Of a stretch of 64,000 nucleotides of DNA, positions 23,001 to 64,000 are shown piece by piece (the first letter of the stretch is position 1; every line of letters begins with the position of its first letter). Source of the stretch: Ascidiella aspersa (taxonomy: Eukaryota); assembly GCA_963924565.1 (NCBI GenBank), contig OZ004613.1, positions 9,982,001 to 10,046,000 of the forward strand, given 5' to 3'. The notes under the pieces were generated by a model that saw only the letters and a program-made list of their open reading frames with translations, was not told where the DNA came from and searched no databases. The position numbers were made by a program, and so were the translations under genes.

Positions 23001-24347
23001 GGCAGGTTATGGGTGTACTTTTGTAGCAGGCGCAAGCGAACTGGCCGAGAGCGCACGAGCAATTTTCCTCATCGCTCCAGTCGCCGCAGTCGTCGGCGCC
23101 GTCGCAAACGTAGAAGCGTCGGTCCACGGCCAGGCTCCGTCCCGGGCAGGAAGCGTTAGCCGCGCACGCGCACACGAAAAGGCTTGCGCGATAGGTGCAG
23201 TTTCGCTCGTCGCTTCCATCTATGCAGCCCTCGTATCCGTCGCACACCCAAGACGGCTTGATGCACCAGTTGTTCCCGGCGCAAGAGGTCGAGTTCGCTT
23301 CGGCGCAGCTGCAGCGAAAGTCGGGCGACGAGCACGGACAGGAACGCTCATCCGAGTGATCCGAGCACTGGTAGATGCCGTCGCAAACCTTGTACGCTGG
23401 CAACATGCCGACGTTGTTAGTGCAACTCCGGTTTTTAGAGAAGCAAGCACATGTGAACATGCTCGGACGGAATTCGCATCTTGCCTCGTCGCTCCAATCC
23501 CCGCAGTCGTTTTTCCCATCGCATATATCAGTTGGTGTGTTGACGCAGCCCGACGAGGTCTTGCAGCCCGACCAGTTGCACTTGCACATAAACTGGTTCA
23601 TGTAACACGCACAGGCCACCTCGTCGCTCCAGTCGCCACAGTCGTTATTTTGATCGCAAACCTTAAACCAAGAAATGCGCCGAGGACTGGTCAAGGCGCA
23701 CGAACCGTTACGCGCACATGCGCAGTAGAACTGGACCGCCACAAAATCACAGTAGAGCTCGTCGCTTCCGTCGGCGCAGTCGTCCCGGCCGTCGCACTTT
23801 TTGATCAGCGGAACGCAGCTGATCGGATCCCGGCACTTGCCTTTGGCGTAGCGGCAACCGCACGAAAACTGACCGGCGCATCGGCAGTCGGCCTCATCGC
23901 TTCCGTCGGAACAATCGCTTTTCCCGTCGCAGGTCTGCCGCTGCAGAACGCACACCTCAGGGTAGACGCACGTGTTGTTGTCCTGGCACGCGCAGCTGAA
24001 ATACCCACTCGCACAAGTGCACCCGCGCTCGTCTGTCCCGTCCAAGCAATCCAGCACACCATCACATATCTCAGCCTCGCTGTAGCAGCCTCTACCGTAA
24101 TAACAGTGGTGTGTTCTCAGCGGACAGCCGCACTGGTAAAGGCCAGGCGCACAGAAGCAGTCCTGCTCGTCGAGACCGCCTTTGCAATCGCTCGAGCCGT
24201 CGCAAACCCAGTTTTTAGGGATGTTGCTAGCTTTGTAGCTGTTTTTGACGCTCAAGTAGTAGTAGCCGTTCAGGTATTTGGTCCGGGCCGGGCACTCGCA
24301 GTTCACCGTGCTTCTAGTTGGATCCAGCCGTACGGCGTTGCACCATT
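20008..24347 (-). CDS. LDLa-repeat class A GPCR (LGR/RXFP/GRL101-type 7TM, no LRRs); 4340-nt main exon
   Basis: The 1449-codon ORF has ~22 LDLa modules (CDGxxDCxDxSDExxC) followed by a 7TM with LGR-type motifs GNIVV, NLSMSDFLMGVYL, CSALGVL, YYGETSVCMP, LILTDFACWVP, LLPTNSALNPLIY. The ORF-track start is TTG; acceptor ttgcag at 24348-24353 gives a phase-1 exon start at 24347. Confidence 0.93.
20048..20088 (-). repeat. Coding 9-bp tandem repeat (ggcggtgct)x4+ giving (PPA)n in the GPCR C-tail
   Basis: Seen directly; translates NAPPAPPAPPAPPAPPV. Confidence 0.95.
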
Positions 24348-25346
24348 CTGCAAGCAAAGTGGTAAAACTGTTTCAGGCAAAGCGGCCTGCATACGCTGAA
24401 CAGGAATTCGCAAAAGAAAAACTATAGAACCAGTCTTGTGCCATTCAGGTATTTTTTGTTATTTTGGACGAACGTTATACGGTTGTCAAATCCGATGCTA
24501 ACGGCGTCATTACTTTACAAAAACAATTTAGAAAACTGGTTATTACGCCAAAAGTGTCGGTAAGCTTATTATTCTTCGATTTATTTTGTAATATTTTTTA
24601 TAAATTTAATTTTTAAAGTCGAAAATTCTCTACATTAAAATTAAAAATAAGGCTGGAATGCAGATGTTAATTTGGCATTTACTCGGTATCAACACTAGCG
24701 TAATACCGATACTTTTACTACGGCAAACTTGCAATTAAGGGTGTCCAATATTATCGAATCTTTGCCGATACCAACCAAAATTGAATATGTATAATAGGTT
24801 GGTACGGTTGCTGATTCGAAACTAAATTGAAAAGGTATTTTATAATTGTGCGACTCAACGCACCATTTTTTGCTTTGAATTTGGAACTTTAAAGCTAAAA
24901 TTTATAACTTCAAGTTATTAGAATTTGGCAAAGCGATTTGCTATTATATATGTGAAATTTTTTTAACAAAGCAACCAAGACGTATATATATATAAATGTA
25001 GATATACTTAGGTGGGAAAACTCATCATTAGGTGTAACTAAAATGTTCAATCCGATTTAAATCACTTCGCATAAAATTCATTTCTAATATGGCAAGAGTC
25101 AAGAGTTCGATCTATTGTTGCATTTACAACAATGGCTTTGATGAGTGAAAGCCCTCAGGCCATAACTGCGGGCTAATGTCTGTTCTTTCGTGTACATTGC
25201 TGATAACGATTAACACAGGAAGTCAGTGCATTTAGGGTTAAACGAAATTTTAACGTGATGTTGTAACGACGGGAAATCCCAGTGTTTGCATATGTTAAAC
25301 GATCTGTACATTGCCAAGGGGATGACCAAAGACAATGTTCACCTAC

Positions 25347-42596: not shown

Positions 42597-42660
42597 GTCA
42601 CGTGACCCGAGTGGGCGTGTGTTTGTTCCTGGGGATTCCCCGCCGGCCGGCGTATAAATA
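42597..42660 (+). promoter_or_regulatory. Core promoter of the EGF-repeat gene: E-box GTCACGTGAC (42597-42606), GC-box GGGCGTG (42613-42619), kappaB palindrome GGGGATTCCCC (42631-42641), TATAAATA (42653-42660)
   Basis: Motifs read directly, in a GC-rich patch ~115 nt upstream of the ATG at 42775. Confidence 0.7.
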
Positions 42661-42774: not shown

Positions 42775-45700
42775 ATGAGAGTAGCGACAATCCTGAGCGT
42801 CGCAGTCCTGTGCTGCGCGCACCTGTCCAATGCGTATACCCCAAAGGGACCAGGTATGTTACTATTCCATTTACAAGTATCTTTTTATTCCATTTAGAAT
42901 TTTTCCAGGTGTGCCACAGGCTTGCAGGTGGCATATTTCGGGTTTTGCTGTATTTAAAACAATATTAAATATATTTTAAACGAATTTTCTTTGCAGCAAA
43001 TTAGGGATTTGCATTTTCTAATTACTCGCGTTTGATGTTTTGCTTTTAAGACGATTTACGAAAAACACAATCGTACGCTTTAACGTTTTGTTGACCGCAT
43101 TAAAATGCCCCAATATCCAGAAAAAGTTTCAAACGCAAAAACATTTTTTCAAATTTCAGAAAAAAAATTTGTTAACGTTACGACATTTTTTTTGGTGGAA
43201 AGAAAATGAACCTCTTAAACGTTTTGTTCGACTTTAAGTGAAGGGAATCGTAACTCTAATAACATGATATTCTGGCCACTCGCAAATTTTTTTTCGCCTT
43301 TTTCTCGGAAAGTTTTACGACTCCAAGCCAAACGTATTCCACTTCTGCCTTCCAACAGGTGCAAAGCCCCACCGGTGTTTCGAGGAACCCTTCCCGTGCG
43401 ACGTTAACGCCATCTGTTCCAGCACCAATGCTTCGGTCTACCGTTGCGACTGCAAGTCGGGTTTCACCGGCGACGGTTTCAGCTGCACGCGTAAGTCGCG
43501 CAAAAACAAAATAAAACAAAATTGAAAAAAAAATTCGACGATATATTTACAACAAAGAGTGATTTGTGTTTTGATTAATCGAAAACCGCAAGCAATTTCG
43601 CAAAAGAATTGCTCCTAGAATAAAAGGTTATAACGTTTAGGTATTTTTCTAATAGTTAAACGTTTAAGTGATTTTTTATAGTTAAAAACAATAAATTCGG
43701 CGGTATATCAACAACAAAAATTGATTTGTGTTAGTTTATTCAAAATCGTAAGCATTTTGTAAAATAATTGCTCCTTAGAATAAAGTATTTTAACGTTAAG
43801 GTGATATGGTTTTATACAGTTAAGGTTTTCTAGCAAGTTAATTCGTTTACAAATACATTTTAACACTTGCATGCGTAGATTTTACATATTATCTTCAAAG
43901 GCATGAAATAATGAAAATGCATAACTTTTTTCAGTGTATAGTCAGACTTTTACTCTACTTAACCCATATGGCCTAAAAATTATTGTTTTTGCCGTTTTTT
44001 GGCTCAAACTGTTCCGAAACTTGCTCAAACTCATCAAACCAAACCGTGACCCCCCAATCTTCCCGCAGCGATCGTGGTGCCGGATATTCCCCCTTCGCCA
44101 CCCATGGACCCCTGTGACCCCAGCCCCTGCGGGTCCTACTCCACCTGCACGGTCCACTACGGCCAGGCCCGTTGCGCCTGTGACGATGGATATTCTGGAT
44201 CTGGAGATGGACGCGATTGCCAAGGTAATACACTTTTTAAAGTTCTTAAGGTCCTAGTCGGTAAAGCAATTTGGCTTGAAGGGAATTATTGGCCATGTTG
44301 TCGCCTTTAAACAGGGGTTGGCAAGTGAGGCGAAAGCACAGGGGATTTGTGTGTAGTGCGAGTTATGATAAATTAAGTGGGCGCGAAATTAAAAAAATAA
44401 ACAGCCTTAAAATATGAGCTGTTGCTATATGAGGCTCTTATTAATAAGTCAGCTATAGTTGACATAAATATACGTGAGTATACCGCCTGTCTCTCATTTC
44501 ATTCTGTGTTGTTTGATTATCCCGTGTTCGTATTAGTTTAGTGCTAAAGAGTGTACCTGTATTACGCGATGTTTTAGAATTAATTTAGTAAAATGATGTG
44601 AAGTAAACAGACAACGCCTTGATAATATTCTACATTATATACATTTCATATGTAAACGCTAATGCCAGACGAAAAATTCTTAGCCATCAACACAGGATAA
44701 GCCAGTTATTCTGGTATTCTGAAAACCCAATCAGCTCAAGCAGCAATCGCAATTTGCAGGCCAAAATGTCAAATCTGCTCTGGCACGTTTGTACGTGAAC
44801 AACAATTAAAAGTATTGTACAATGATTATATTGTTCTGAGAAGTTTAACGCACTTCGTGTGACAGTGTCATAAAAAAGGCCCCTAAATTCCAGTTACTCT
44901 CAAAGCCATTGCATCGCGTATATACCGGTATACCGAAAAAGTGCACGTTGTACGTATAAGCCAAAATAGCTAATTCGTTTTATGTCGTCAATGGGCTTAA
45001 TCACGCCTATCACAAAGTATCCAGGAAAGAATAGCAACGGCATTCAAGCAATTCTAAATTTGCAGATCATCGTTCTGCTCGTGAGTTTTATTTGAAAGTG
45101 CTAAAACCGAAAGTCAATTTTTTAATAGATATTATTACCGTTTGAATGGCTTTCCGAATTAAACAATAGGTAATACAAAAGTGAAATATAGTTAAATATA
45201 AATATTTTAGTTGGATATTTATATATTATAAAACATGCGACGGCCTATTTGTTTTCCAAATTCCGCGAAAGTAAACAGTATTACCTCGCTAAGCAAATTT
45301 ATCGAAGGCATTCCTAGGTCAAAACCATCTTTTCTCAAAACGACGGTTGTTTTGTCGCCCAAGTCACTGGACATTTGTTTTTTTCACCCACAGTGGTGGT
45401 TCCCCCACGTGACCCCTGCATACCCTCCCCCTGCAGTCAGCACGCAAGTTGCGCGGTGGTCGACGAGACTGGCTACGAGTGCACCTGTAACACCGGATAC
45501 TCTGGAGACGGAAGCCAATGCACCATTGTCTGTAAGTCGGTTTGTTGATACCAACTTCTAGAAGAAAAAAATAAACTTCAAATTAAAATGCCCACGTCTG
45601 CCCCAGTCTCTGTAATTCGGTTTGCGTTTGGTATACAGCGCTGCGCCCATGAATATACCCGCTTAGGAGAGTGTAGCGTGTTTTATAACATATTTCAACG

Positions 45701-48700
45701 CTGCACAACAGTGAAAGTATGTAAGGTGAATTAATATAAATTTGTGGAATGTATTTTTATGTTAAAATGTGTGCGACATTTACACTTACAAGTTTTCCAA
45801 CGACGTATACTTTTAGATAAAAATTGTAAATTTTGAGAAAAAATACTTTTTTTGTGAGAAATAACTTCAAAATCTGTTTTCTATTAGTTGACATAAAATA
45901 TATTTGCGCAATCACTGAAACACGGGGCATACAATTGTCAGTTCGGTTCTTAGAAAGCATCTGTTTTATATTTTTGTTAAATCAATTTATCTTTATGTAC
46001 GTATATACGTTTATACTGCTAATGGGGTGCTCATTAATTGTGCTATTTTCTAATTTAAACTGCATAAGGTAGGAAATGACGTTGAAAATTATAGAATGTC
46101 GTTATAAATTTAAAATTAGTATTGTCCAATGATTCTGACTCTGCTGTTGTCTATGACAGAAAAAGCGCTTTGAATCACATTAAACGTAAATAGAATGTAT
46201 TAAAATGTAACTATATTGTGGAAATTATTAATAATGCATCAACAACAGTAATACGCCTATTGTTAAGCAACTCTTACTTTGCCGTCAATCATTTAAAAGA
46301 ACAATTTGCTTTCGAACAGTGCATTTAAATTTTGGCTAAGGCCTATTTGTAAAATGAAACAATTAGGTTACATTTACAGCGATGTTCACACGATGCTATA
46401 TTCATATCCTTATTCAAATTTATTTTAGTCGGTTCATTTTTGTTGTGATATCGCATAACAACAAACAAGGGCGCCGATAATAATGATAAAAGCGCTGATA
46501 AAACATTGTCAACCCGGAATTACAGGTACTCTAAAGCGAAACAGAACGGTAATCAGTATCAAACTACCCCAATGTTAGCGTGTAACGTCCAAGCCTTCCT
46601 TGTAATTGTAAGGCACCGCCAATACGACAGCGGGTTATTAAAACGCAGTTCGATTAAAGCATTGTCCTTTTCAGCTGACGATACGTGTGAACAGTGTCAC
46701 GACAACGCCAAGTGCTACAGGGGACCGGGCAAATGGCAGTGCGTTTGCAATCCGGGTTATTACGGCAACGGAAACGAATGTAGACGTAAGTCCTGATGTG
46801 GATTATGTTTTGTCGCGCAATTTCTGCAAGACAAGTAATACACGTTTTCTAAAAATGCCATACCGAGCTATGCACACTCTTAATTCGCGCAACTAATATA
46901 TCGCCTATATATTCACAGCGATAAGAGTACATTTTAGATTCCGGTTCGTGTATAGATAAATAGTCGGCCTCAAACAGTGTAGTGTGAGTGTATATATGTT
47001 TCGTATAGCCATGTAATCCACATGTATATATACGGTGATCAACGTAGAAGTTATCCAACAAGCACGGCATACTTATAATAATTTAAAGGATAAATTCGGA
47101 CAGGCTATTACCGAAATCAGTTGGTGTATAAGTTAACAGAGTTGCAGAGCTGGTAAGGCAAGGTCGGTAGTAACCGCGACTTGTCTGAAATACAATTCTG
47201 ATGGGACTAAATTATTTCGGTAATAGCCTTTCCGAAGGTACCCGTTAAGTGTATAGGTTTCGATTTAATTCTGTTACTGGGAAACCTGTAAATGCAACAA
47301 GAACTGCATTTTGAAAAATTTAAAATTCCGAGCTCTAATTTAGAGCCATATATTTAAAAGTTCATCTTCAACTTTGTTAAAACGGGTTTTCAGGAGTCGC
47401 AATTCGGTCCATTTAAACAGTGATTACATTCCCTTTATGTGGGAATCGAGTGTTAAACCTTCTACTTTTTGCAGCCAAAGACCCGTGCAACGGTCAGAAA
47501 TGTCCACCGAATACAAAGTGCGTTGCATCAGCCAAGTCATTCCGATGCGTGTGCAAGGATGGATACAAACAGAGCAGCAGCGGATGCCAGCGTGAGTGTT
47601 TCGCGATATTTCTTTCTGATTTTAAAGAGACAAAAGCGAATATCATAATAAAGTGTTTCCAAATTGTTTTGGTTTTTAACTTGTGTCGCTTGGTATACCA
47701 GTTAAAATATGTTTGCGGATTGTTTTCACCCCGGGTATTAAACCCTGAGTAAACAGCTGAAAAAAGGTCTGTTTGTAAAACTTCAAAATCACAAAGAGAG
47801 AAAAATTAAAATTTGCTGTCTCACTAATCATGACTAATGCGACACACAAATGTCATGGATGGCTTTAAAATGAGCTTCTCTTACTTTTATTTATATTTTA
47901 ATCTGTCGTTGGCCGTTTCTCTTTGTCCGCCAGAACGAACGTGATACTTAGGCTAACGAAATTCGTTCGAAAACAGTTTTTATTCACGAGGCATAATTGC
48001 ACTTAAAAAGCAGATTCTCGGAACGCTAAGCAGTGGCGACGCCCAGTGGCGCAATTATGTGCTTCGCGAAACCAATTAGACTTAAGCGCGATGAAACTTT
48101 CTGTTTCGAGGACCAGTGGCCAAATTCCCGTCAATAAAAAACAAAACAGATTTTCCATAGCAAGCCGCATTGCAGACACTCATTTGCATTGACGGCGGCA
48201 AACGAACATGCATTAGGCTAATTTCGCTTTTAACAGTTCACAAACTGTCTAGAAATATCAAGGGAAAACCCCACCAAACGACGCGAACTGAGTGGAAAAC
48301 GAGACAAAAAAGCGTTTGGTTGCTATATCCAACTGCAAAAATGACAAAGCAATATTGATGTTTCCATGTCCAAAACGTAGACCTCCGTTCCTAACGTTAT
48401 ATTTCAGATAACTTTAAAATATGATATCATGTTATTGCTAGTAGTGTAATAGGACAAAAGGTGCACCAAAAGGTGCAGCCTACTCTTGCAAAGAGATTAT
48501 AGTGTAAGTAAAATAAAACCTGACTTTGAACCATAATGCTTGGAGGTATAAGAAAGGTACAACAACAGAATGAACAGTTAAAACAGCGTGCTCGATATGT
48601 ACGTTGACGTGCCGAAAGAAGCAAACTCAAATGCTAATAATATTTTAATATTCCAAAATAAATAGTATTTTGCTTTATGTCCTTTAAAAAAACGATTTTT

Positions 48701-51700
48701 TTGGCAGCAATAAATGTCTGCGCCCGTGTCCTGTGCCCGGAAAACAGCATCTGCAAGCCGAGTGGCAATGGACACATTTGCCAGTGCATCGACGGTTACA
48801 TCCAGACACCCCAAGGCTGCAAGAGTGAGTGGCGCCTTTTGGAATACATTATAAATTATGCGTTGCCTTTCTCTTTTATTTACGTCCAGAAACTTTGTTT
48901 CAATAGAGTTTATTTTGTCACACATAAAATTTCAAAGCATTTTAGCCTGCTTTGCCAGTATTACTGATCGACGGATATGGTGAGTCTGCGATGGCTTTTC
49001 GTGTACTATGATACGCAAGCCACGATCGTCGGCCAAAAAGCCGCTTCCTAGGGGCTAGATCACAGCTGTTGAACACATATGCGTTTGTATCTTTCTATAG
49101 TTAAGGTTATAAGTTGACTCCTGTTATCAGAGGTGTTACTCAGACACTGTTTTTGTAGCTTTAATAAGGGTTATCGTAATTTTACAAATCAAAAATCATT
49201 TGACAAGCCCATGAGAGAAAGGTACTCTAGCCCTCCCAAATCACCGTGGCCCTTCCCCCAGCTATATGGTCTCACATGTCTCAACTCTAGCTAATTGCAC
49301 CCTTGTCCCGAAAGTTAGCTTTGATTAAAGCGCCCCACGGCCAAGTCACTATACCACGTCTTACCCGCGCCTGCTGTTAGGCTACAAATTCCCACAGGCC
49401 AACCTCTCGCGTGGACTGTCCACTGGCCTTGAGCGATCACGAACGGCGGAAATCACAGGTCGTTATTTGGGGGACGGTGCCAACGCGTGACCGTATATGC
49501 TGGCCTATGACTTCCAATGGTCGGTTAAGGCTACCGACCCCTAGTATTCTGAACATAGGTCAGCCTTAATTGAAACTTTACTTTTTGTCGTTGTCCTGGT
49601 TGAGCAACCGTTTGAAGAATTTGTGTCGCGTATCGTCTATTGTTGCTTTTTACTGTTGATGCGTACCACCTGGTTAGCCAATTTATTTCAAATTTAACTA
49701 TGTAGAAAAAACTGAAACATCGCCAACACTAAATATAGCAACAAGAAATATTACAGGTCCATTCAACACCGTTAAACGAGAAACACCACGCCTGTATGTA
49801 CAATAATGTACTGTAGCCATCCCTAATAACTTCTGAAAATCAGTTAAACGGCTCTTTCTTTTGTCAATAATTGAGCATTGGTTTGACGAACGGTTTTGTG
49901 TGATTTTCTGGCAGCCAAGCCGAACGCCTGCTACAATAGCAAGTGCCCAGACAATTCGGAATGCGAACCTTTGAACAAGAAGGGCTACAGATGCGTCTGC
50001 AAAAGCGGTTTCGTAAAGGGCAGATACGGCAGATGCATACGTAAGCTTAACCTGTGAATTCTAACCTCGGATTATCTGTGTACGTTTGGTTTTATGTCAA
50101 TTTCCAAGCTGAAAAGCATCTTTAGCGTGTTTAAGTACAGCTAAATTTATCTGTGCGTGATACTTTGGAGTTTGGTTAAGATTCAGAATCACCAAACGTT
50201 TTGCGTTTAAGTTTCAATAACAAAGCTAGTTTTTTAGCTCAGTGTTGTAATGACTTAAATCAATTACTTGATTTACGTGCATTGTCACTGTTTTCAAATA
50301 ACTTGACTTGACTGAAGCATTTTAGACAAATGATTTGGGTTAAATGAAGTATTTTTACTAGGCCTTTTCTTTGAAAAAATTATTTATCTCATTGCTTGCA
50401 CATAAAACAATTTGCTTGCTATACGTTGCTTTTATAATATATTTTTCTCGAGGTATTTCCCATAATCGGACTGAAACGTGTTATTTTTATGACCAGGACT
50501 TGAGTTGAAATTGACTTGCTCTAATTATAAATTGACTGGGACTTGACTTGCTTTATTGAAAAACACATGATATGATTTGTTTAGAACACGGCTTCAGCTT
50601 GTCAATCAACACAAATTCCCCTTAAAAAGCGTCTCCTAAATTACTTTTTTTTAAATATAGTGTACAGTGTACACCACTTACTGGGCCCCGATTAAGGGCT
50701 GACCCATACCATAGATTATATTGTATCTTGAGTAAAATTTACCCCTTTTTCAGTCGTGGTTTAATCGCTTTGTTAACAATGTTTCGGTTAACCCTTTTAG
50801 CCTAATGATCTCAAATGACAGAACTATACCTTAATTTGCATAATATATAGGTTTTGAAATAAAAAGCAAGGCCTAAACAAACGTTTAACAAAAACAAATT
50901 GCTACAGCCTCCGACCCGTGCCATGGAAGAAAGTGCCCGGTCAACTCGGTATGCCAGGCCTGGGGTAAAGGATACAAGTGCGTTTGCAAAGAAGGATTCG
51001 TGAAGCGAAACGGAGCCTGCCGGGGTGAGTTACCTTTGTCTTTTGCGCATATAGGTAGGCAATTCTAGCTTGTTGGGATTTCTGTGTAAAACTGATGAAG
51101 GTTATATAAAGGCACCTAATATTTTATTGCCTGAACACGATATTATGGAGTGGAATATACGGTGTCCGATCCACCACAAATCACTCTAACACGAAAGTTA
51201 GGTCAATAAAAATAAAAAAATGATAAGTGTAAATGCCAAACTTAACTATATATACGTTTTAAATCTGTTTAATACCGTTGATATCAGACGTAAAAATTAT
51301 AACATACCAATTGTTGCTTTCACAGCGAGCGACCCTTGTCATGGCCGAAGTTGCCCCCCAAATTCGATCTGCCAGGCTAACGGAAAGAATGGATATCGGT
51401 GCGTTTGCCAGGACGGATACGTGAAGACCGCATACGGATGCAAACGTAAGTGTACAAGCTCAATGGCGTAGACAGCCGCAAAATTTTTTTTTTGGGGGGT
51501 GCAAAAAGTTTGAACTATTTTGTTTAGCCTTTGCCATTGTATGAACTGCCGAATCGAACAAAAACAAATATTCTAGCAAACCGTTTCAAGCAGAAACTGA
51601 CTGAGCTTTAACGCAATACTCAAAAACCATTTAAAGACTAAAAAGTAGTAAAACCACATTACTAAATATGGCAAACGTAATAATAACTACATCGTTTGTG

Positions 51701-54700
51701 ACGTAACAGTGCATGACAATTGAAGGCGTGGTATGCCTGTGATAGACTGTTGTGGTATTGCTAAAAAAAACAAATAAATGTTACAAAACAAATTATTAGA
51801 ATGACAGTATTTTTTTAGATATATTTTTGTTGGGGGGATCATGACCCCCTTGTGTCCTTGCTTCGCCTATGGACAAGCTGCGTGTTTCACACGACTGTGT
51901 GTGTCTTTGATTAATGGCAAAGCGACAGCCTTAATTTGAAACTTAGTCGATGTAAAGTAGAAATCACACTATTTCTGTATATTATTGGTATTTAACACTT
52001 TTAGTCACAATCTATCAATTTATCAGCATTTAGGTCTTGTATAATTGGATATGTTCAATGGTAATGTACAGTAAAGTGTTATGATCGCTTTAAGCAAATT
52101 TTGGCTCTTAAAATGCAAACTCTTTATCAAATAAGGTTTATTTAAAGTTTAAACGTCCATTAAAAAAGCTTCGATCGAACGCTGTAATTTTGATTGACAG
52201 CTCGCAACCCTTGCCACAACATCAAGTGCGGGCCCTACTCTACCTGTCAACCGAACGGCAAGAAGGGATACCGATGCGTGTGCAACGCCGGTTACGTTTG
52301 GGCCGGAAACGCGTGCAAGCGTAAGTCTAAGAAATTTGCTTCACTACTTATAAAGTGTTGCTCAACTTTGGCGACCTAATTTTCTTCACTGAGTTTTTGT
52401 GGGTGAATAAAACATTTAGGTTCACTATGCACGGATCTGTAATGCAGCTTGATAATAAATTTCAAAGCCAAAATGATGATTTTGATTTGCTCGACCTTTT
52501 TGACTCTGAAATTCATTATTACCCCAAATAAAACATTAGTATAAATAATTTCGTGTATAATTAATGTGGTCACTTATTCCTATTTGTCCTACTAATGTCG
52601 AAGAAATCTTGCTCTAAACCGATTTTAATACGTCTAGCTATGTGAGCTACATCAGCGACCCGACCAAACTAAATGGGACCTAATTTTGGGCCGAAAGCAA
52701 TAGGGTGAGAAACACTGCTTTAGAAGTCGGTACAAAAGGTGCACAAACTACTACCAAAAGTTTTTTAATTGTTAAGTTGTTTTATTGTGATGAATCGATC
52801 AGCGTCGGATATTTCCTTCGCGTGGTTTAGAGCTTATATAGCTTTTTTTTTCTTTGTCACATTAACTGCTGTTTCATTGAACAACCGTGACTTCAGCTTG
52901 TTATATTCTCACCACAGATGCCGATCCATGCCACAACATTAAGTGTGGTCCCTACTCTTCCTGCAAAGCCAACGGCAAAAGGGGATACCAATGCGTTTGC
53001 CAGGACGGATATGTAAAAGGACCAAATGGCGTTTGCAAAAGTAAGTTAAACGCATACGGGAAATAGCCGAATGGTCGGCATAATAAAAAAAATGTCATTC
53101 TCTATAACCAACTTTTTTTTTTCTACACATTATGCAGGGTTGTACTTAAAGGTTTTAAAGCCGTGCTAATAAAATTGGCTTAACATATGCTTGAATGTCT
53201 GTCGCCTTTTTAATACGATCAGAACAATAGACATGGAAATTTTGGCATAACTATCACGATCCTTCGTGAAACCCAATTGATCGAGCTACAAATAATTCCC
53301 TACAATGGTGCAAAATGGTATTTTGTGAGAAAATTTGACTGTTAGCAGTATATTGATAACCGGCGAACCATTGTGTGCTGCACTTACTATAAGTTTGTAA
53401 GCGATTAGCTTTAAAGTCAGCCGAACAACATTCGTTGTTTTTTTAAGGTGTTTTGGATTTCAAATTTCTCCAGCGGTTTCCCAAATTTTGGACTTGCAAC
53501 TTTTTGGTATTTAAATGAAACACTTGCGGTTTCTTAAAACTACTTAGCGGTCACCCAAACCAAACCTTAAAAAAAAACTGATAACGTTGTTTACAAAATG
53601 TAACTTTTCACGTGCAGATAGCGACCCCTGTCACGGCCGTACCTGCCCGAAAAACTCCGTGTGCCAGTCGAACGGAATAAAGGGATACCGTTGCGTCTGC
53701 ACTCAAGGATACGTCAAGAGGGGATACGCGTGCTTACGTAAGTTAAACGGATCCCGTCTACTGAAATCTCGATTGTAACGACCAAAAGAGGCGATAGGTC
53801 TGCGGTGCAACAATGTGAAGTGTTCGTTCTGTGCACAATTTAACTTTAACTGCAAGTCGAAAACGTTTTAAGAGTGTATGAAAACTTAGAATGTCGCATT
53901 CTTACTTTGTTTACAAACATTCCGGTTTAATATATAAATTTTGCTATCCGGCATAGTAATAATAATAAACAACACCTTCTCTGGTAATTGTAATTGTTAA
54001 CCAACGTTTAGGCAACCTATTCAAACCACCTTTTTCAGGATTTACGCTTGTAAGTGAATATAGCATTACAGGGTTCACACTGAAGAAGGCGATTTGAATA
54101 CTTTGCCGAAACGTTGGTTAACAATTACTATTACCAGAGGAGCTGTTTTAAATTATTACTCCGGTTTAATCTTCAACAAATATCACTTCTTAGACGTAGG
54201 TTGTGGCTACGAATTAAATTAATATTTTAAATCTTTATTTAAATTTTTAGCCAAAGACCCTTGCCATGGACGCAAATGCCCTGCCCATTCGACTTGCCAG
54301 GCGAACGGAAAGAACGGATATCGTTGCGTATGCTCGGACGGATACGTGCCAACCAATTACGGATGCAAAAGTACGTTAACGGAGATCGGACGTTATTGTT
54401 TTCGAACTTAGCAAGTCATTATGAAATAACTTAAGTCGAAGTCAAATATTTTTGATTTAATGATAAGGCAAGTTCCAGTCGAGTCATAATTAGAACAAGT
54501 CTTTTAAGTCCCGCCCTTGCCATAAAAATGAAACGTTAAATGATGGGAAATGGTAAACTCGCACGATTGAGAAAACACTTCTTTTCAACCAAAGTTATTT
54601 TTAAAAACACTTAAGTTAAGTCAAGTCATTTCGCCCAAAATATTTAACTCAAGGCAAGTCATATAAAAAAAGTCACTTAAGTGAGCAGTGTAATTCTGAG

Positions 54701-57700
54701 GAGTCCGTAAGATTGGGGTCATATAGAGATCTGCGACTAGCGCAATTTAAACTATACATTTATGTAAAAGCTATAAAATGTATCTAAGAACCGACGCCGT
54801 TTTGTTACAGAGGTCAACCCGTGCGACAACATTAACTGCGGCCCCTTCTCCTATTGTCAACCACAGGGTAAGAAGGGCTACCGGTGCGTGTGCAACGACG
54901 GATACGTCCAGACCGGACACGGAGGTTGCAAACGTACGTATGCGCAGGGAACTTGAAGTTTTATTCTTGTGAAAATAATTTGAAAAACCTTTGAGTAATA
55001 AGTATTTTTATTAGGGCATTATATTTTCACACAGATTCAAAACGCAACTAAGAAATAAAATAAATAATAATGAGTACCGTTATGTTTTGTTCTCGTTATT
55101 GTGGCAACCTGTATTGTCCAAAATCAATTTTCGTCACGAAAAATAGACATTTGCTCTGGTAGAACTCTACAAAGCTACTGTATTGATATGAAAAAGTGTG
55201 ACCTTTCAAAGGTTTAATTTTCTGTGTGAAAGCTACCGTTCAGTGATTTCTCAATTATTCTAAAATCGTATAAAACATGATTTACAACAGATTCCGACCC
55301 ATGCCACAACATTAAGTGCGGTCCATACTCTTCATGCCAAGCCAATGGAAATAAGGGATACCGATGCGTTTGCCAGGACGGATATGTTCCCTCTGCATCT
55401 GGATGCAAACGTAAGAACGTGAAAGTTTGGGTTTTAATATAAAAAGCTTTTGGTGGAATCAAGTTGTAAAAATTTCAAAACCAGTGTTTTAAGTAAAAGT
55501 TTAGCTTGCAGTAATATAAATTAATTAGCTAAACAAATCAATTCATGTATAGAATCAAAATTTCCAATATTACACTACTATATTAGATATATATGGCCGT
55601 TAGCTTTCGTACTTAATATCAATTGTTTTGTTGCAGATGCCGATCCATGCCATAACATCAAGTGTGGCCCCTATTCTTCCTGTCAATCCAACGGCAAGAG
55701 GGGATACCAATGCGTGTGCCAGTCCGGATACGTAAAAGGACCAAACGGCGTTTGCAAACGTAAGTCGACGGAAGTTTATTCTACTAGGAAATATTAACAG
55801 CTAAACCACGTAGGCCTTTCAGGTGTAGAAACACATGTGTAAAAAAGGTTCAGTGATAAACATACTTAAACTATATTACTTATAATAGTGTTGTTCTACA
55901 CTCCACACTATAGGGTCAGTGATATTTTGCTCATTTTTACATCAGAAAACACTTAATTGGATTGCGCCAATGTCGTCGTAACAACTAAGCTATACGTGTA
56001 GAACTTAGATGTTTGTGTAGACAGGTTTATAGAAAAGGGTAATTAACATACCGGAACAACATTTTGTTTATAATACCTTGGTTTTACAGGGCCTTTTTCA
56101 CCTTGTACATCAGTAAAATACATGGATTACGCCAAAGTCAACTTACAATAACGGGTTTTATCAATTTTGCTTTAGATGCCGACCCTTGCCACAACATCAA
56201 GTGCGGCCCATATTCTTCATGTCAAGCCAATGGAAAGAGGGGATACCGTTGCGTTTGCCAGGACGGATACGTCCCTGCTGCATCTGGATGCAAACGTAAG
56301 TCTATAAAATACATGTATAAACAATTAACATAGTTTAGGTAGGAAAAAATAGGGTAGAAAAAGGACGAAGGAAAGGCATTGCGATACTGAATCTATCCGT
56401 TCTAAATTTAGACCTAATTGCTTTTTGTAAGAAAAAACTTCTTGAAAGCGAGAGTTATCTTTCTCCTATTACTTTTTTATATTTAGGATTGAATATTTTA
56501 AATGACATTAGATCAAGGAAATTGAGGTTAGATTGCGTAGGCCTATAAACTCGTCCGATTATTATGAGAAATCCAAATGTCGCAGAAAATAAAGATAAAG
56601 AACCCCATTTTATAAAAAATGTCCAAAATACTTAAGTCAAGTCAAGTCTATTGAAAACAGTGACTTAAGTGCATTCGAGACAAGTCGTTGACTTGAGTCA
56701 TTATAACATTGCCTAACAGTCAATTTTACTTCAGATGCCGACCCATGCCACGACATCCAGTGTGGTCCTTACTCGACGTGTCAAGCAAACGGCAAAAGGG
56801 GATACCAGTGCGTGTGCCAATCCGGCTACGTCAGAGTCGGAAATACAGGGTGCAAAAGTAAGTTGTGTTTTGAAACCAGGTTAAGAATCCCAACTTCAGA
56901 GCAGATGATTTTATACTTCTGTTAAAGCCTTTGGTTTGGTTAGAAATGTTTAACACCACACAGCACTATAATCTGAATAATGGATAATGGGGTGTGACAT
57001 TTTTTGGGGGGGAAATTTAACACATATCGGAAATAAATACTATTTTTGGCCTACATACGGGGCTACATAACATATGGACCATAACTGATCATTTGCCTAA
57101 GAAATTTGCACTTTAAGACCTATTAAATTTATTAGCTACAAAATATGTTAAACATGTATTTTCAAACAAAAAGATTAACTAAAATGAAAGTTGAAACCCT
57201 GGGTAGAAGGTTTAAAAACTGCGTTATTATTAATACTTCTATATACTTCTACAAAAACAATCCTCTGTAAAAAGAAACTACTGTTTCTGTGCTTAACTTG
57301 TGTTTATAATATTTTGAGTTTATTTGTTAACAGCTAAAGAGAAGCATAAATTAGCTGGCGCTTTACAAGAGTCTGATGGCTTATAGTCAACAATAAACGA
57401 TCTTGTATTATGTTAGGAAGCTGTAAGCTAAATTTTTCGTCCAATTAACAGACGCTGACCCTTGCCACGCGGCCAAATGCCAGAAAAACGCCGTCTGCAA
57501 GCCCAACATCAAGGGATTGTACGGCTACAGGTGCGTCTGCAAGAAGGGATTTGTACCCGGCTACGGTGGACAGTGCAAACGTGAGTGTAACCTTAGATGT
57601 TCATTGCCCCTTGATTTTTTTCTTTGCCTACCCGACACATCTCGTGTGCATAATACTGTATAGTGTATATACCACAAAGTGGAACACAAATGCACAAAGT

Positions 57701-60700
57701 GGAATACTTAAGAGAGTGATGCGACTTGTTTCTGTTTTTCCATAAAACGTGTTTTTCAGGGCAGAAACCCCTTATTAGCACATGGCGGTTGAGAGTAGCC
57801 TGCGTGCAGCTAATAAACATAAGAAGTGCGTAATCGACTTTAAAAAACGGGACCTTCAAAGTTGTTTAAAAATTTTTGACCACATAATGCAATACTTTCG
57901 AATAAGAAAACTCAATGTGAAAGTGAGGCCTTAAGTCAAAAAAGCTACGAACACTTTTGACAACCAGTAAAGTACAATTGTTATTTGTTTGCCTTCTTTA
58001 GCTTACGACCCATGCAGAGATGCCCGTTGTGGTTTCTATGCCACATGTACTGTTTATAACGGCAAGGCCAAGTGCGTGTGCAGAGACGGCTACATACAAA
58101 CCAGCTACGGATGCAAACGTAAGTTGTCGACACGATACGAAGGAAAAACTTACAACAGCAAAACAGACTGTGTACATAATGGAATAATTCAAATTAAATA
58201 CGCTGGACCAAGGTTTACCAAAACCATTGCAGCCCCGGGAAACATAACCAATAACCATACTAACATGCAGGCTTTTTGTTCTATTTACTTTGAAGCTCAG
58301 GGCCTGCGTTCAGTGAACAGTTGCTTAGCTATTTTAACTTAAGGTTTTGTGCACAGGTCCCGACCCTTGTGAAAACAACGACTGTGACAAGCACGCCGTT
58401 TGCAAAACCTGGGGCAACTCATACAAGTGCGTTTGCAAGTACGGATGGGTGGGAAACGGAAAACAATGCAAAAGTAAGTGGTGAAATCACGTTCATATAT
58501 AGTTGCTATTGCATTAGATAAATTCTTTTCTGCTCTTATTGACCACAGAAAAGCTATCGGTTACAATGTACTCATAAAACTTAAAAACGTACAGGAATTT
58601 GAACATTGGACGAAATAGTTTGGTCAGAAAGATTTGTTTTTTTAAGGGGCTATGTAGGTTTTACGTTAACGATTGACCGTGGCTTTAAAGTTACTTTTGA
58701 ATGTATGTAAACTGTTATGGCAATGTTAGCTGAAAAATTTTAGTACTATATCATGACCTAATTGGTATCGCTACACAAAACATTTATCAGAAAGTCCGAA
58801 AGTTTTAAACTGAATGCTGCACGCAATTTTTTCGCAGCTAACCCATTTAAATATCGTTTGTTCTCGCATTTTTGCTTGCCATGGGTTTAGCCTGCCGCCA
58901 ACCATTTGTTTCATTTGCCACGCAGGACCAGACCCGTGCGCCAAGGCCCACTGTTCCGATCATGCCGTGTGCACCCCTCTCAGCTACTCGACATACCGGT
59001 GCACTTGCAAGCCTGGATTCCTCGGCAACGGATTCAAATGCAAAAGTAAGTTAATACTGGCAGATTCTGAGCGGAGTTGGATTGTTTTTGTAGCGCGACG
59101 AACGTATCGCGTATTCCGAACAGCGCGTTCTAGATGTGATCAGAGGAAAAGTAGATAGTTTTGCCATTTAATCAAAATATCTCAAACTTTACGTTAACCT
59201 GTATTCTGAACATAAAACTGATTACTGCTTTGCAAGCATTTATACAGCACATCTCAAACCAATAAGAATGTAAGTGCCAAATAAACAACCCTGGAGGACA
59301 ATATGACGGTTCACAATGGGTATAAACTGGACTGCCAACCTCAAATACGCCCCTTGAAACCCTAACCTGGAGTATTATTGGCAGTTCAAAGCAGCAACTT
59401 TGGGCTGACATTGTTTCATATCATCGATAGCCAAGAAAACTAGGCTATATATTTTCCTTGCACAATACGTGGCTGATAATGGGTGCAAATGGAAGGAACT
59501 TAATATCACACCGGCTTTAAAAAAATAGATTTCCCTAAAGTCCAATTCAAACAAGGTTAACTTAATCGCAACTAAAGAATAAAAAAAATTAGCTTGCCAA
59601 AAAGATTCACCCGACCGTTTCTCTTGCAGAGCCTGACCCCTGCCGCGTCTGCAGCCCCCATGCAATCTGCCATAAGCAGCCAGGCAGCTACCAAGTCAAG
59701 TGCATGTGCAAGCCAGGCTACGTCGGATCCGGCCGCTATTGTTCAGGTTGGTAACGCGAGATGGTTTCGTTTTAAAGGAAAATATAGTGGCCGCCAAAGT
59801 GGGTGGATTTTTGTTTTACATTTATGAATGAAACCAGCAAAAATGAGCGTGAAAAGGAACAAAGGATGCCAGTAAATATAGAATTAAAATAAAACGGAGA
59901 GAGATTTTGATCATGCAGTGAAAATGTGTAAAAAGTTTTAAAATACGCAGATAACTGCTAAGTTTGTTTTATATTAGCTGCGTTTCTTTAAAGCATGAAA
60001 CAACACATTTTTATATGAAAAAAATGCAAAACTAAAGCGTGGCCCTGTTTTCCAAACTCCGAGTGTGATTTTTTTCATTTTTACAAACTAAAAATAATTA
60101 CCTCACACCAGTGAGGGGAGTAATTAAAAGAAAACGCAAAATGATGTTCATTTACCACCAGGCCATCCCGCTATCTCCTATAATGTATTTAAACTAATTT
60201 CAGTTGCATACTTCATCGAAACGACAACCTCGGGTTACTTGTTTAGACGTTCTGTTATGCCTGAAAAGCGTCAGGTGTCCCAGTACTAAAACCTATTCTA
60301 CTTTTACCTAGCCTCGCCCCTAAAGTTCGGTACAGCTTGGTGGGTTGCGAAACAGTGCATTTTTTTCTTTTTACAGTCGATCGTTGCTACCATTCGAATT
60401 GCAACGAACACGCGGTGTGCATTCCAAACGGGCTGTTCGGATACACGTGTCGATGCAAGGCCGGTTACTACGGCAACGGACGCTACTGCTCACGTAAGTT
60501 ACCGACTGTGCCAGTGCGCATGCGCAAACATGTGCACGGCAACCTCTTTAACTAAAAAATCACAAAATATGAATCGGTTATTTTAGGTTCTGTGTGACAC
60601 GATGTGGCCATTTATGGCTTTCCATATAAGTATGTTAAGTAACTTGTTTTTATGCGCGTCATCATGTCGCCGAACATATATACAGCCAAACATGGAAATA

Positions 60701-63355
60701 TTGCAGCGTTCTCTTGGCAACACGCCAACTATTTGGTTTCTAGTGGCGCTGGCGCCTGAATAAGTTCTAACATTTCTCGAAAGTCCTGTTCTAAAAACAA
60801 GTTCAAAGAAAGCATGATTTGACAAGAATGACAAGTAGACTTAGAGAAGAATGACAAGTATAGCCTTCTTACACGAACAGGCACGAGACGAAAAAAATCG
60901 AGGCCACTTTAAAACGCGTCAATCCCCTCTCCAAAAATCTTCATTTTTTTTTTAACCAGCCAACGCAACTTTTTTTAGATGAAGCATCTCCTTTAACCCG
61001 AAAACTACAGCGTTTTAGTACAGCCAGGTAATCTGGCCTAATAGGTGCAGGCACCGCCATCCGCAAATCGAGATATATTTAACTAAGCGCACATGTTGGT
61101 GACAGGCGCTCACAAAAACAAAGGCCAAATTTCGGGCACGTGCCACGATTTGTTTACTTCGCGACGGGAGTGTCAATGGCCTAAGCACTTGTCATCTCTC
61201 TTTTAGCACACATATACGCCATTGAGCTTAATCTGGACTCCTTCTTAAGTCGCCCAGCCCTGTCAGTTTATGGCTTACGTTGCGGTTGTTAATTGCTGTG
61301 GCGCGCAGTCGCAAAATTACAAGACACCGAAGAATGGCGGGTTCCGTGCGGTTTAAAATGAACGGCTTATTTCAAGCCGTGTAAGTGCGGACGATGGCGT
61401 GTGCTTTAATTATAGAACGACAGAATCCTTAACCATAACTTGGGCTAGACAAAAGATAAAAGCTAATTTTTAAAAAAACTTAAAGCTAATTCCAACAAAA
61501 TATAAGTTTGTTCTTGAGTTAACTTATGTAGCATGCTCTGTTGACTCATTGTAACAAAGCACCCCGCCTTAAGTCAAACAGTAGTTTTGTATGTAAACAA
61601 GTTTAAAGTAACCTTTTTAACAATAAGTTTATTAGGACCTGCTAAATTCCAACAAAAATATATTTTATTAGTTTGGCTTTTCCATCACGAGCAATTGATC
61701 AATCGATGGCCTTAGGTTTATTGAAATAACACCTCTACCGAACAAAGTGACTGATGACATTTTAATGATTGCATAAATTTAGCTGCACTAAACAAGCACA
61801 TTGACGGAATTGCTTGTAGTCACCACGACAATGCATCGGGATAGAAACCAGTTGTCGAAATTGCTTTTAATTTTGACTATTGGGGCTAGTAAACAGATGT
61901 ATAAATATTAATTTTAATTTCCACGCTACAAGCATAATATGACTTTATGGTCGACATGATGTTATTATTTTATTTATTTATGACGGCGTAATTCTGATCT
62001 AAAAAAGCTCTCTTGAATCACGTAATTGTGTGTTTATTTGGGTTGGCCGTTTCAACATGAATATACATGCCAAAGTCTTACGTCAACGTAACTATACAAG
62101 GAATCTTAATTAAAACCGGCGGCGAAGCGTATGTTTTTAGTCTAATCTGATCGTGATTTGCGATTACAAGCTGAATTATTTCTGGACGTGACCCTTACGG
62201 CGCTTTGGCGCTTCTAGCGGCTATTGTATGCGATGCGGAGTTGCTTCATATATAGTTGTGTAATTAAACGTGTAATCATTCTTCCATTCTCATTTTACTC
62301 ACTTTGTACTTCATCCTTTACTGTTTTAGGTTACGTAGTTTAAGCTTCCCTTTTTAACGGTCTATATTACTTTGAAGATTGCATAATCTTGGTCCTTAAA
62401 TACAAAACAAGATTGCTTCACTTGCAGTTTCAGATCAATGTTTTTTGTTCCCGGCGGGGTTTGAGATGAAATGATATTACGTTTAATTGAATTCCCGACA
62501 AGCTTTCGCACAACCGTGCTTCATCACGTCAAGCTTTATTTATATACTTTGACCTAATGAAGCACAGTTGTCGGTTGTGCGAAAGCTTGTCGAGAGTTAC
62601 AGTTTGTCTTTACATATTGCCTTTACATATTGCCACCTTATTCCTCTATTTAGAATTATACCAATACGACCATTTAGAAAGATGCATTTAATTGCAAATC
62701 TATTTGCATTTAGAGAATAAGATTGGAATGTATTTTAACTATAGTGTATTAGTTAACGTCATGCTATAGGCACAATTCAGCAAATTACTGCTTGACATGC
62801 ATTTCCTGTTCTTCTCCTGTCAATAGTGTCCTTCGACAAACATAGAACCCTTTATTGTGTATTTTCAGAACCAAACAACAGTTGTAAGGGCAGATGTAAC
62901 AACAGCTACTCCAAAGGAAGCCATTGCCAATGTACTTCGAAATGTTCCAAGTACAACAACTGCTGCGCGGATTACAAGAAATTCTGTAGGTTTTCCACAA
63001 TTACCAAGTCTAAAGTAAAAAAATAGAATGCAACGAAAAGGTGGCTATCAAGAAAGTACTACTTGACACCTCAGCGTTTTGAACAAAGCGTGACTAATTG
63101 CAAATAACGAAGTATAGATTGGTGAAACTCTATGTGACGTCAAAGCCTACTAAACGTGTTAAAATATTATCTTGACACATTGTTAAAGGTATATGGACTG
63201 CCACGAACGCAACCTTCATGTTAACTATCCCGACACATTAAACGCTTGTAATGATGCACAACTTCACCCGAATACATTAAGATGTTTAGTTACAAAAACA
63301 ATAAAACTGTATTTTATTATTTGCAGGCGGCAAAGGCTACGGATACCAGTGGTAA
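42775..63355 (+). CDS. Secreted tandem-EGF (24x) + somatomedin-B protein, ~1055 aa, adhesive-plaque-matrix-protein-2-like composition; exons 42775-42853, 43359-43490, 44069-44224, 45394-45531, 46675-46785, 47475-47591, 48708-48824, 49915-50040, 50908-51024, 51326-51445, 52201-52320, 52918-53040, 53618-53737, 54251-54370, 54811-54933, 55291-55410, 55637-55759, 56176-56295, 56735-56857, 57452-57580, 58002-58118, 58357-58473, 58926-59045, 59630-59746, 60377-60493, 62869-62985, 63327-63355
   Basis: Signal peptide MRVATILSVAVLCCAHLSNA. All internal exons are phase 1-1, GT-AG and a multiple of 3; exons 2-25 each encode one EGF (e.g. DPCHNIKCGPYSSCQANGKRGYRCVCQDGYVPAASGCK). SMB domain SCKGRC..CQCTSKCSKYNNCCADYKKFC; stop after GKGYGYQW; total 3168 nt; no TM segment. 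Confidence 0.92.
43548..43802 (+). repeat. Diverged intronic direct repeat (~95 bp, period ~160 bp)
   Basis: caacaaa..tgatttgtgtt..aattgctcc(t)tagaataaa..taacgtt.aggt occurs twice. Confidence 0.7.
47087..47244. mobile_element. Small TTAA-flanked MITE (Kolobok-like)
   Basis: ttaa|aggataaattcggacaggctattaccgaaat ... atttcggtaatagcctttccgaaggtacccg|ttaa: ~30-bp imperfect TIRs with TTAA on both sides. Confidence 0.65.
50240..50600. mobile_element. GACTT/AAGTC-repeat element (intronic)
   Basis: Starts cagtgttgtaatgacttaa; aligns with the 26302 copy; right boundary approximate. Confidence 0.75.
51461..51871. mobile_element. hAT-like MITE inserted 15 bp downstream of a splice donor
   Basis: Imperfect TIRs caatggcgtag / cttcgcctatg; TSD tacaagct / gacaagct (7/8); subterminal G/C runs. 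Confidence 0.7.
53932..54159. mobile_element. Fold-back insertion with hammerhead-like core (Penelope-like remnant), flanked by an 11-bp direct repeat
   Basis: Inverted arms at about 53956-54038 and 54080-54159; CTGAAGA-a-GGC..GCC-GAAA-CGTT at 54080-54115; tccggtttaat at 53921-53931 and 54160-54170. Confidence 0.7.
54410..54690. mobile_element. GACTT/AAGTC-repeat element fragment (intronic)
   Basis: aagtc pentamer clusters and ggtaaactcg motif; boundaries approximate. Confidence 0.6.
56490..56711. mobile_element. GACTT/AAGTC-repeat element fragment (intronic)
   Basis: aaactcgtccgatt motif, aagtcaagtcaagtc, terminus gtcattataacattg. Confidence 0.65.
62490..62598. mobile_element. Fold-back insertion with mutated hammerhead-like cores on both arms
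   Basis: Arms cgacaagctttcgcacaaccg / cggttgtgcgaaagcttgtcg; sense gac-CTAATGA-a-GCACA..TGTGC-GAAA-GCTT-gtc. Confidence 0.7.
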
Positions 63356-64000
63356 ACTCTTCAATGCAACGCCTTTGGCCATTCCACCCACCCAATCAGT
63401 GTTCAGTAGCCGAAAAACTATTGCCTATTTCGCTTATTAATCGACAATCGTACTGTTTTTCGTACCTAAATGCTGCCCTTGTTTGAATCTTTGATTTTTC
63501 AACTTGATCCATTTTTATTTTTTGTTTTCCGTATATATCCAGAAAAAATATAGCTCAAACTTTGTTAAAACTCATTTGACGACGAGATTTCGCCTGCCTA
63601 TAAACAATAACTAAATAAGCAATTGGTTTTGTAATGTGTATAATACATCAGTTCGTTTTCGGGAGATTTGCAAATATAATAAACTTCCCTTGTTTATGCC
63701 GTTTGCAAATGCAATTGATTTTTCTAAAAAACTAGGTAGATAGAATATGCAAGATCAGGTAAAGTCCCTCTTAAGATGTATATTCTTACTTTTTTGTGGA
63801 CCTGTTGTATTTTATCGTTGTTGAAAAGATATCCAAAGTATTAAAGCAAACGGTTTCAGAAAGGATAGACTTGAAAATTTGGTGCGAGGAAAATTACCAG
63901 ATTGCACTTTGATGAGGCAATAGCCAATCAGCGGCGATGCCACATGCTTTTTTTATCACGCAATTAAAGCAATCAGCACTTTCGGGCAGACGTTTGTTTC

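Follow-up and report, generated by a model that had tools for sequence, protein, structure and literature searches.

A secreted tandem-EGF and somatomedin-B protein predicted in the ascidian Ascidiella aspersa, a candidate cationic cross-linker of matrix glycans

Mussel foot protein-2 (mfp-2) is a 45-kDa protein of the plaque core with 11 EGF repeats, a pI of 9.5 and 5 mol% Dopa. Its role is cohesive, and its adhesion to mica is low, at 1 mJ per square metre (PMC9999432). Long Cys/Gly-rich EGF arrays are also found in the attachment structures of other molluscs, as in Barbatia bcbp-1 and bcbp-2 (16 and 19 EGFs) and scallop Sbp9 (49 EGFs). The part played by tandem EGF repeats in marine adhesives is disputed, with DOPA chemistry set against glycan binding. 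GlcNAc-bearing chitosan is bound strongly by mfp-2 and also by Dopa-free human EGF (PMC11697411). Ascidians are major foulers, and few of their glue or tunic proteins have been characterised. EGF-repeat proteins have been found in the stolon and papilla adhesives of Ciona, and the papilla protein APAP-1 of Ciona robusta is described as cohesive, with multiple EGF-like domains and a mass of 46.5 kDa in recombinant form (PMC12817120). Here we describe an A. aspersa gene that resembles these systems in layout and departs from each of them in detail.

The window is the whole 64,000-nucleotide stretch of DNA analysed, part of contig C7. A scan for Cys-rich exons flanked by AG and GT, together with gene modelling, places the gene on its + strand, from the ATG at 42775 to the end of the TAA at 63355. 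The model has 27 exons. All 26 introns run GT..AG and lie in phase 1, and the exons join into a single open frame of 1055 aa with a calculated mass of 112 kDa. The encoded order is a signal peptide, 24 one-exon EGFs, a somatomedin-B (SMB) exon and the short tail GKGYGYQW. A TATA box candidate, recognised by its sequence, lies at 42653..42660 (+), ~120 bases before the ATG. Exon 1 (42775..42853), which ends at a GT donor, would encode a signal peptide of ~20 aa and the first mature residues; inspection and hydropathy (1.6, compared to 0.53 for the best 19-residue window past it) were used to call this signal peptide and to place its cleavage near residue 20-21. On the basis of the model, Pfam and charge counts, the EGF exons fall into three groups. 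EGF1-4 (43359..46785; singly 43359-43490, 44069-44224, 45394-45531 and 46675-46785) form an acidic block with Pro-rich linkers, one before EGF2 and one before EGF3. EGF5-20 (47475..58118) form an expanded basic core. EGF21-24 (58357..60493; singly 58357-58473, 58926-59045, 59630-59746 and 60377-60493) are also basic and nearer the generic EGF_3 type. The SMB exon (62869..62985) is basic as well, with 6 Lys, and the terminal coding exon (63327..63355) carries GKGYGYQW and the stop. The 3' UTR extends approximately from 63356 to 63700, as judged from RNA depth and an AATAAA at 63678.

The gene is transcribed and is a live gene. In 1,177 million letters, ~6% of one stranded RNA run, compared with the gene from 52000 onward, the junction 62985>63327, a GT..AG splice, is spanned by five sense-strand reads with five different starts. 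Every other junction has fewer than 3 reads in this sample, and, apart from the last junction, the 27-exon splice chain is predicted. RNA depth is ~0-3x on the EGF exons, several of whose bins are zero, and 6-9x at the 3' end; it reaches 6.3 in 63367-63587, within the 3' UTR, and falls to 1.1 in the following bin. Sense reads cover three of the four bins of the EGF21-24 exons. Because the confirmed splice leads from the SMB exon to the stop exon, no membrane anchor follows in those transcripts. A downstream transmembrane exon, which the initial annotation had named beforehand as refuting its proposal, is thus ruled out for the transcripts seen, and in the 40 kb downstream of the gene we saw no EGF, SMB or other continuation. 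The signal peptide, the lack of a transmembrane segment or anchor and the C-terminal SMB domain with its GKGYGYQW tail, all proposed there, agree with the hydropathy values, the Pfam match and the junction reads.

All 24 repeats find an EGF-clan match in Pfam with E<=0.01, mostly below the curated cut-off. The calcium-binding consensus occurs in none of the 24, which bears out the initial description of compact EGFs without it, and the C5-C6 spacing is 10-12 throughout. An AlphaFold model of one repeat (pLDDT 83) shows the hairpin typical of EGFs, and EGF domains align with it. Ten of the 24 repeats carry the O-fucosylation consensus; we discount it, because the enzyme prefers the 8-residue EGF class. 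On the exon at 62869-62985, Somatomedin_B (PF01033) scores 44.3 bits against a cut-off of 23.1 (E 2.3e-11). The eighth SMB Cys is supplied across the splice to the terminal exon, and the domain aligns with those of vitronectin and EndoU. The mature chain has 152 Cys, that is, 24x6+8, all of them used by domain disulfides, so that no free thiol remains. In a Pfam search the coding exons contain only EGF-clan and SMB domains, with no nidogen or fibrillin accessory domain, and RGD and KGD are absent from the protein. Fibrillin, fibulin and nidogen, in contrast, have both the cbEGF consensus and accessory domains. Judged by its predicted sequence, the protein does not belong with the calcium-binding EGF matrix proteins.

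The SMB domain of vitronectin has an acidic-hydrophobic patch that binds PAI-1 and uPAR. In the alignment, D-E-L and Y-Y of that patch are replaced here by T-S-K and K-Y. Being basic and without the acidic patch, the SMB domain here more likely extends the cationic surface or docks another partner.

The composition of the protein is unusual. Overall, K makes up 8.8% and Y 6.8%, with K+R-D-E = +75; the EGF cores contain 7.5% Lys, 4.3% Arg and 7.6% Tyr. Net charge per EGF is +2.5 over all 24 repeats and +3.5 for EGF5-24. For controls, we took 263 other EGFs from 16 loci of the same genome, which average -1.76 per EGF (a mean weighted by a few large arrays), and 306 database proteins with at least 5 EGFs, which have a median of -1.5. 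Only 4 of the 306 reach the same charge per EGF, and 5 the same Tyr share. These data support the initial reading of a Lys/Tyr-rich protein, with one restriction: EGF1-4 are acidic (-2.5 each), and the Lys-rich part consists of EGF5-24 and the SMB domain.

The basic residues are not spread evenly. K and R account for 26% of positions in C1-C2 and 26% in the C3-C4 hairpin, compared to 4% in C2-C3; in EGF5-20, they are placed in C1-C2, the C3-C4 hairpin and the linkers. The C3-C4 hairpins of these 16 repeats hold 37 K/R and 1 D/E in 142 residues, and 11 of them (EGF8-18) carry a motif of the type G-x-x-G-Y-[R/K/Q]. Recurrence of short Lys/Tyr/Gly motifs, as noted initially, is confirmed by the counts (KGY 7, GY[RK] 11, YG 11).

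Comparison with mfp-2 reveals both likeness and difference. Each is almost wholly tandem EGF, basic, Lys- and Tyr-rich, and secreted (predicted for the protein here). Inspected by eye, the 9 visible repeats of M. galloprovincialis mfp-2 have ~12% K, 7% Y and +4.7 per EGF. A hairpin of the form G-K-x-G-Y-[K/R]-C-x-C, like that here, occurs in 2 of these 9 and in none of the 351 proteins retrieved by our EGF searches. However, the C5-C6 spacing is 8 in all nine, as judged by eye, compared to 10-12 here. The protein is therefore not an mfp-2 member, and since the EGF class differs, any likeness would be convergent. The acidic part is an N-terminal Tyr/Lys/Pro peptide in mfp-2 and four folded EGFs here, and no SMB domain is described for mfp-2. 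Finally, DOPA has been shown in mfp-2 and is conjectural in the present protein. The label mfp-2-like, used in the initial annotation, is thus apt for architecture and for the basic Lys/Tyr composition, and inapt for the class of repeat. Among the other attachment proteins, bcbp-1, bcbp-2 and Sbp9 are molluscan and have WSC, transmembrane or calcium-binding domains where the SMB domain stands here. APAP-1, as described in review (PMC12817120), shares with our protein an ascidian origin, multiple EGFs and a proposed cohesive role; its mass is less than half of 112 kDa.

A further parallel is follistatin domain 1 (1lr7), which binds heparin and combines the C-x4-C-x5-C-x9-C-x-C spacing with a basic C3-C4 hairpin, as here. 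Foldseek ranks this structure first for a single modelled repeat (E 0.35, not significant; rmsd 1.3 A over 25 columns), and its basic hairpin aligns with the C3-C4 loop (E 0.084, also not significant); a second structure aligner does not include it in the 50 entries that it lists. Each hairpin has 2-3 basic residues here, compared to about 5 in follistatin, where the EGF part is followed by a Kazal domain. We use follistatin domain 1 as an analogy for mechanism only.

Homologs were sought by word-index searches with two EGF-exon alignments and by HMMER against 1.84 billion representatives. Both methods, which are weak for 40-residue queries, returned generic EGF arrays, the best named matches being nidogens and fibrillin-like proteins with 27-31% identity to the full model; none of the EGF matches listed was an ascidian ortholog or showed an SMB pattern. 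The name Mytilus mfp-2 is absent from the best 120 of 340 and the best 120 of 401 word-index hits. The ESM Atlas yielded generic EGF clusters only, and the SMB exon, used as query, matched a single unnamed protein in which SMB is accompanied by a different domain. A full-text literature search, largely of papers outside subscription, found no ascidian protein with an EGF array plus SMB.

A likely ortholog came from a published table, in which the Ciona protein XP_018669846.1 appears under the automatic name 'adhesive plaque matrix protein 2' (PMC11697411). It is absent among the matches listed by our word-index and HMMER searches. We compared it by eye over the first 400 of its 508 residues. 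Its EGFs 1-3 match EGF1, EGF2 and EGF4 of the present protein, in the same order, with 50-53% identity. The first pair (19/37 identical) has a 6-residue C1-C2 and shares PFPC and AICSS. The second (19/36) shares HYGQA and is preceded in both proteins by a Pro-rich linker, and the third (16/32) shares a 2-residue C1-C2 and an identical C4-C5 11-mer. HYGQA, AICSS and the 11-mer each occur in none of the 351 EGF-search proteins. The series of EGF spacings is by itself unspecific, being shared by 8 of 332 proteins, and ~50% identity is also reached between single EGFs of unrelated genes. The case for orthology thus rests on collinearity and on these motifs. Both proteins lack the calcium consensus and look unanchored in their tandem-EGF layout (over the first 400 residues in Ciona); the Ciona protein has a C5-C6 spacing of 10 and 7.8% Tyr in its EGF cores. 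The two probably belong to one orthogroup. The 108 residues that follow this stretch in the Ciona protein would be of fitting length for an SMB end.

The differences between the two are equally clear. XP_018669846.1 has 11 EGFs, compared to 24 here, and its central repeats are four identical copies, compared to 16 diverged ones. Nine of its EGF cores, counted by eye, contain 3 Lys and 24 Tyr in 307 residues. This corresponds to ~1% Lys and ~+0.7 per EGF, versus 7.5% and +2.5 here. Because the Ciona protein keeps Tyr and has few Lys, Tyr richness would be what has been conserved, and the extended cationic core would be either specific to the A. aspersa lineage or lost in Ciona. We found no functional study of XP_018669846.1, and neither its accession nor its name occurs in the searched parts of the supplements of PMC10962819 and PMC13225635. 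The initial annotation had not recognised the architecture as a named family. The likely ortholog already carries an automatic mfp-2-type name, and the novelty is lower than was suggested.

On balance, we favour, with a probability of about 0.5, the view that the gene encodes a secreted ascidian matrix protein whose many cationic sites would cross-link sulfated or GlcNAc-containing glycans in an external matrix. EGF modules are ~2.5-3 nm long, and the exported protein could form an extended rod of ~60-70 nm. The basic C1-C2 loops and C3-C4 hairpins would provide repeated glycan contacts along this rod, and the SMB domain with its aromatic tail might serve as a docking end. The protein could reside in tunic, holdfast or larval glue, and would contribute cohesion rather than surface priming. 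Indirect support comes from the high charge and its placement in these loops, from the chitosan binding of mfp-2 and human EGF, from the multi-EGF proteins of Ciona adhesives, from the tandem-EGF layout shared with the likely Ciona ortholog and, below significance, from the follistatin hairpin. Candidate ligands are present in ascidian tunics, where both sulfated galactans and N-acetylated sugars occur (PMC8747265). Hydroxylation of some Tyr residues, or dityrosine cross-links, could harden the matrix later, but the model does not need them. Several caveats apply. The proteins that revealed the EGF-GlcNAc mechanism, mfp-2 and human EGF, are of a different repeat class, and the list of 'adhesive' proteins in the same source is based on database names (PMC11697411). 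An RNA depth of 0-3x on the EGF exons is less than one would expect of a bulk structural protein, unless expression is restricted in space or time. Moreover, the likely Ciona ortholog does not share the cationic character, and the function of the family must therefore involve more than charge. If an attachment or tunic role is correct, the Lys-poor Ciona form and the twice-as-long Lys-rich form offer a ready comparison in a tractable group, one that makes the charge-versus-DOPA question testable.

In a more specific version, the Ciona ortholog would be a glue protein of the larva or holdfast, possibly APAP-1. In the A. aspersa lineage, exon duplication would have doubled the EGF array and the charge would have turned from near-neutral to strongly cationic, the protein thereby converging on mfp-2 composition and hairpin motif from another EGF class. 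We put this forward as a tentative idea, doubtful as it stands. If true, it would identify a chordate glue matrix protein and provide a natural Lys-poor/Lys-rich pair separating charge, glycan binding and DOPA.

Three other accounts must be weighed against the glycan cross-linker. The protein could be a true mfp-2 analogue that needs DOPA or TOPA, with catechol-metal and oxidative cross-links curing a glue or cuticle and lysines assisting. Its K, Y and charge composition near that of mfp-2 and the shared type of GK-x-GY hairpin speak for this, as do two exposed Tyr in the tail and the 28 of 64 EGF-core Tyr that lie outside the two consensus aromatic positions of the EGF fold. Halogenated DOPA peptides are reported from Halocynthia holdfasts; before that report, which concerns peptides, DOPA adhesive proteins had gone chemically undetected in Ciona and other ascidians (PMC13079984). 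The arrangement of the tyrosines argues the other way. In catechol-cation primers of the mfp-3/mfp-5 type, Tyr(Dopa)-Lys dipeptides are enriched. Here, 21 of 71 Tyr are flanked by K or R, compared to 20.2 +/- 3.5 in shuffled sequences (926 of 2000 shuffles reach 21), and the other 36 EGF-core Tyr occupy the consensus positions. Tyr modification inside folded EGFs is only conjectural, and the likely Ciona ortholog is poor in Lys. The catechol-cation design put forward initially is accordingly unsupported, and we regard a DOPA-dependent analogue as unlikely. A protein of ordinary internal ECM or of mucus, or one serving as tethered ligand or spacer, would have no attachment role, and the Ciona name would then be owed to automatic naming alone; the same label appears, in the table of PMC11697411, on unrelated spider, coral and tapeworm EGF proteins. 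The named best matches are all generic EGF arrays, and the genome is rich in others. Yet the protein lacks calcium consensus, RGD/KGD and nidogen/fibrillin accessory domains, and its charge lies well beyond that of the controls. Neither word-index search nor HMMER, both weak for short repeats, revealed a one-to-one ortholog among known ECM proteins. We consider this account quite improbable; were it correct, the gene would be one more lineage-tuned EGF array of little general interest.

The promoter region bears on the remaining account, in which the protein is a sealant or microbe trap of blood cells or epidermis, induced by injury or infection, whose polycationic EGF string aggregates anionic surfaces. 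Two candidate elements lie at most 60 bases upstream of the TATA box candidate: a palindromic E-box, GTCACGTGAC, at 42597..42606, and a perfect NF-kB-type site, GGGGATTCCCC, at 42631..42641, which ends 11 bases before the TATA box. The latter was called with GGGRNWYYCC, which we take to be the NF-kB consensus; this pattern occurs at 4 distinct places in the 64 kb, GGGGATTCCCC being one of them. The E-box has 1 match in the window where 0.04 is expected, and 4 of 100 shuffles reach 1. Low basal expression in the one RNA run and the strong positive charge fit such a role. However, both motifs were noticed post hoc, and kB palindromes similar to GGGGATTCCCC are present at 3 of 24 unrelated comparison loci. 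The mechanism also overlaps with that of the glycan cross-linker, the main difference being context. Induced sealing strikes us as a long shot.

A search of the 309-Mb genome with the core repeat gave 13 matches, all within the gene, which appears to be single-copy. pN is lower than pS in 27 of 27 repeat pairs, and all 9 exonic differences listed from two DNA runs are silent; the gene is under purifying selection. Two other SMB loci were considered and set aside, as they are SMB arrays without a nearby EGF pattern and hence no second copy. Likewise, EGF exons near C7:9.39-9.52 Mb proved to be acidic arrays of other types. Tandem one-exon SMB genes of acidic type were seen at L001:8183-9003 (at least 2 copies) and L003:6943-9280 (at least 4).

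Many other tandem-EGF arrays exist in the same genome. At C4:33.06-33.42 Mb there are giant single-exon calcium-binding EGF arrays, with frames of 5504, 3453 and 3412 codons; they include 129 near-identical 41-aa repeats in 20 kb, rich in N-glycosylation sites. At C1:27250000-27259999, 48 near-identical one-exon EGFs recur every ~205 bases over 10 kb, exon and intron having been duplicated as one unit. LDLa-GPCR expansions are known in ascidians, and within the window an uninterrupted 1454-codon frame (20011-24372, -; 54-58% GC) encodes many LDL-receptor class A repeats and, after them, a 7TM domain of rhodopsin type; Pfam shows no LRR match in it.

Three related sulfotransferase genes lie within 20 kb downstream of the EGF-SMB gene, at L005:7466-7948 (-), L006:5125-5568 (-) and L006:8819-9295 (+), of which the Pfam scan covered one; any tie to sulfated glycans of the matrix is guesswork. 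Within the intron between EGF24 and the SMB exon, 61820-62261 (+) has a sense RNA depth of ~2, equal to that of neighbouring exons. We saw no plausible in-frame exon there, and the signal might stem from pre-mRNA or mark an alternative exon or start that is unannotated. Short interspersed high-copy repeats occur in introns near 52420-52530, 53450-53580, 54000-54150, 54400-54680, 56620-56680 and 62486-62670, where summed contig depth is up to 200,000, compared to ~60-100 for unique DNA.
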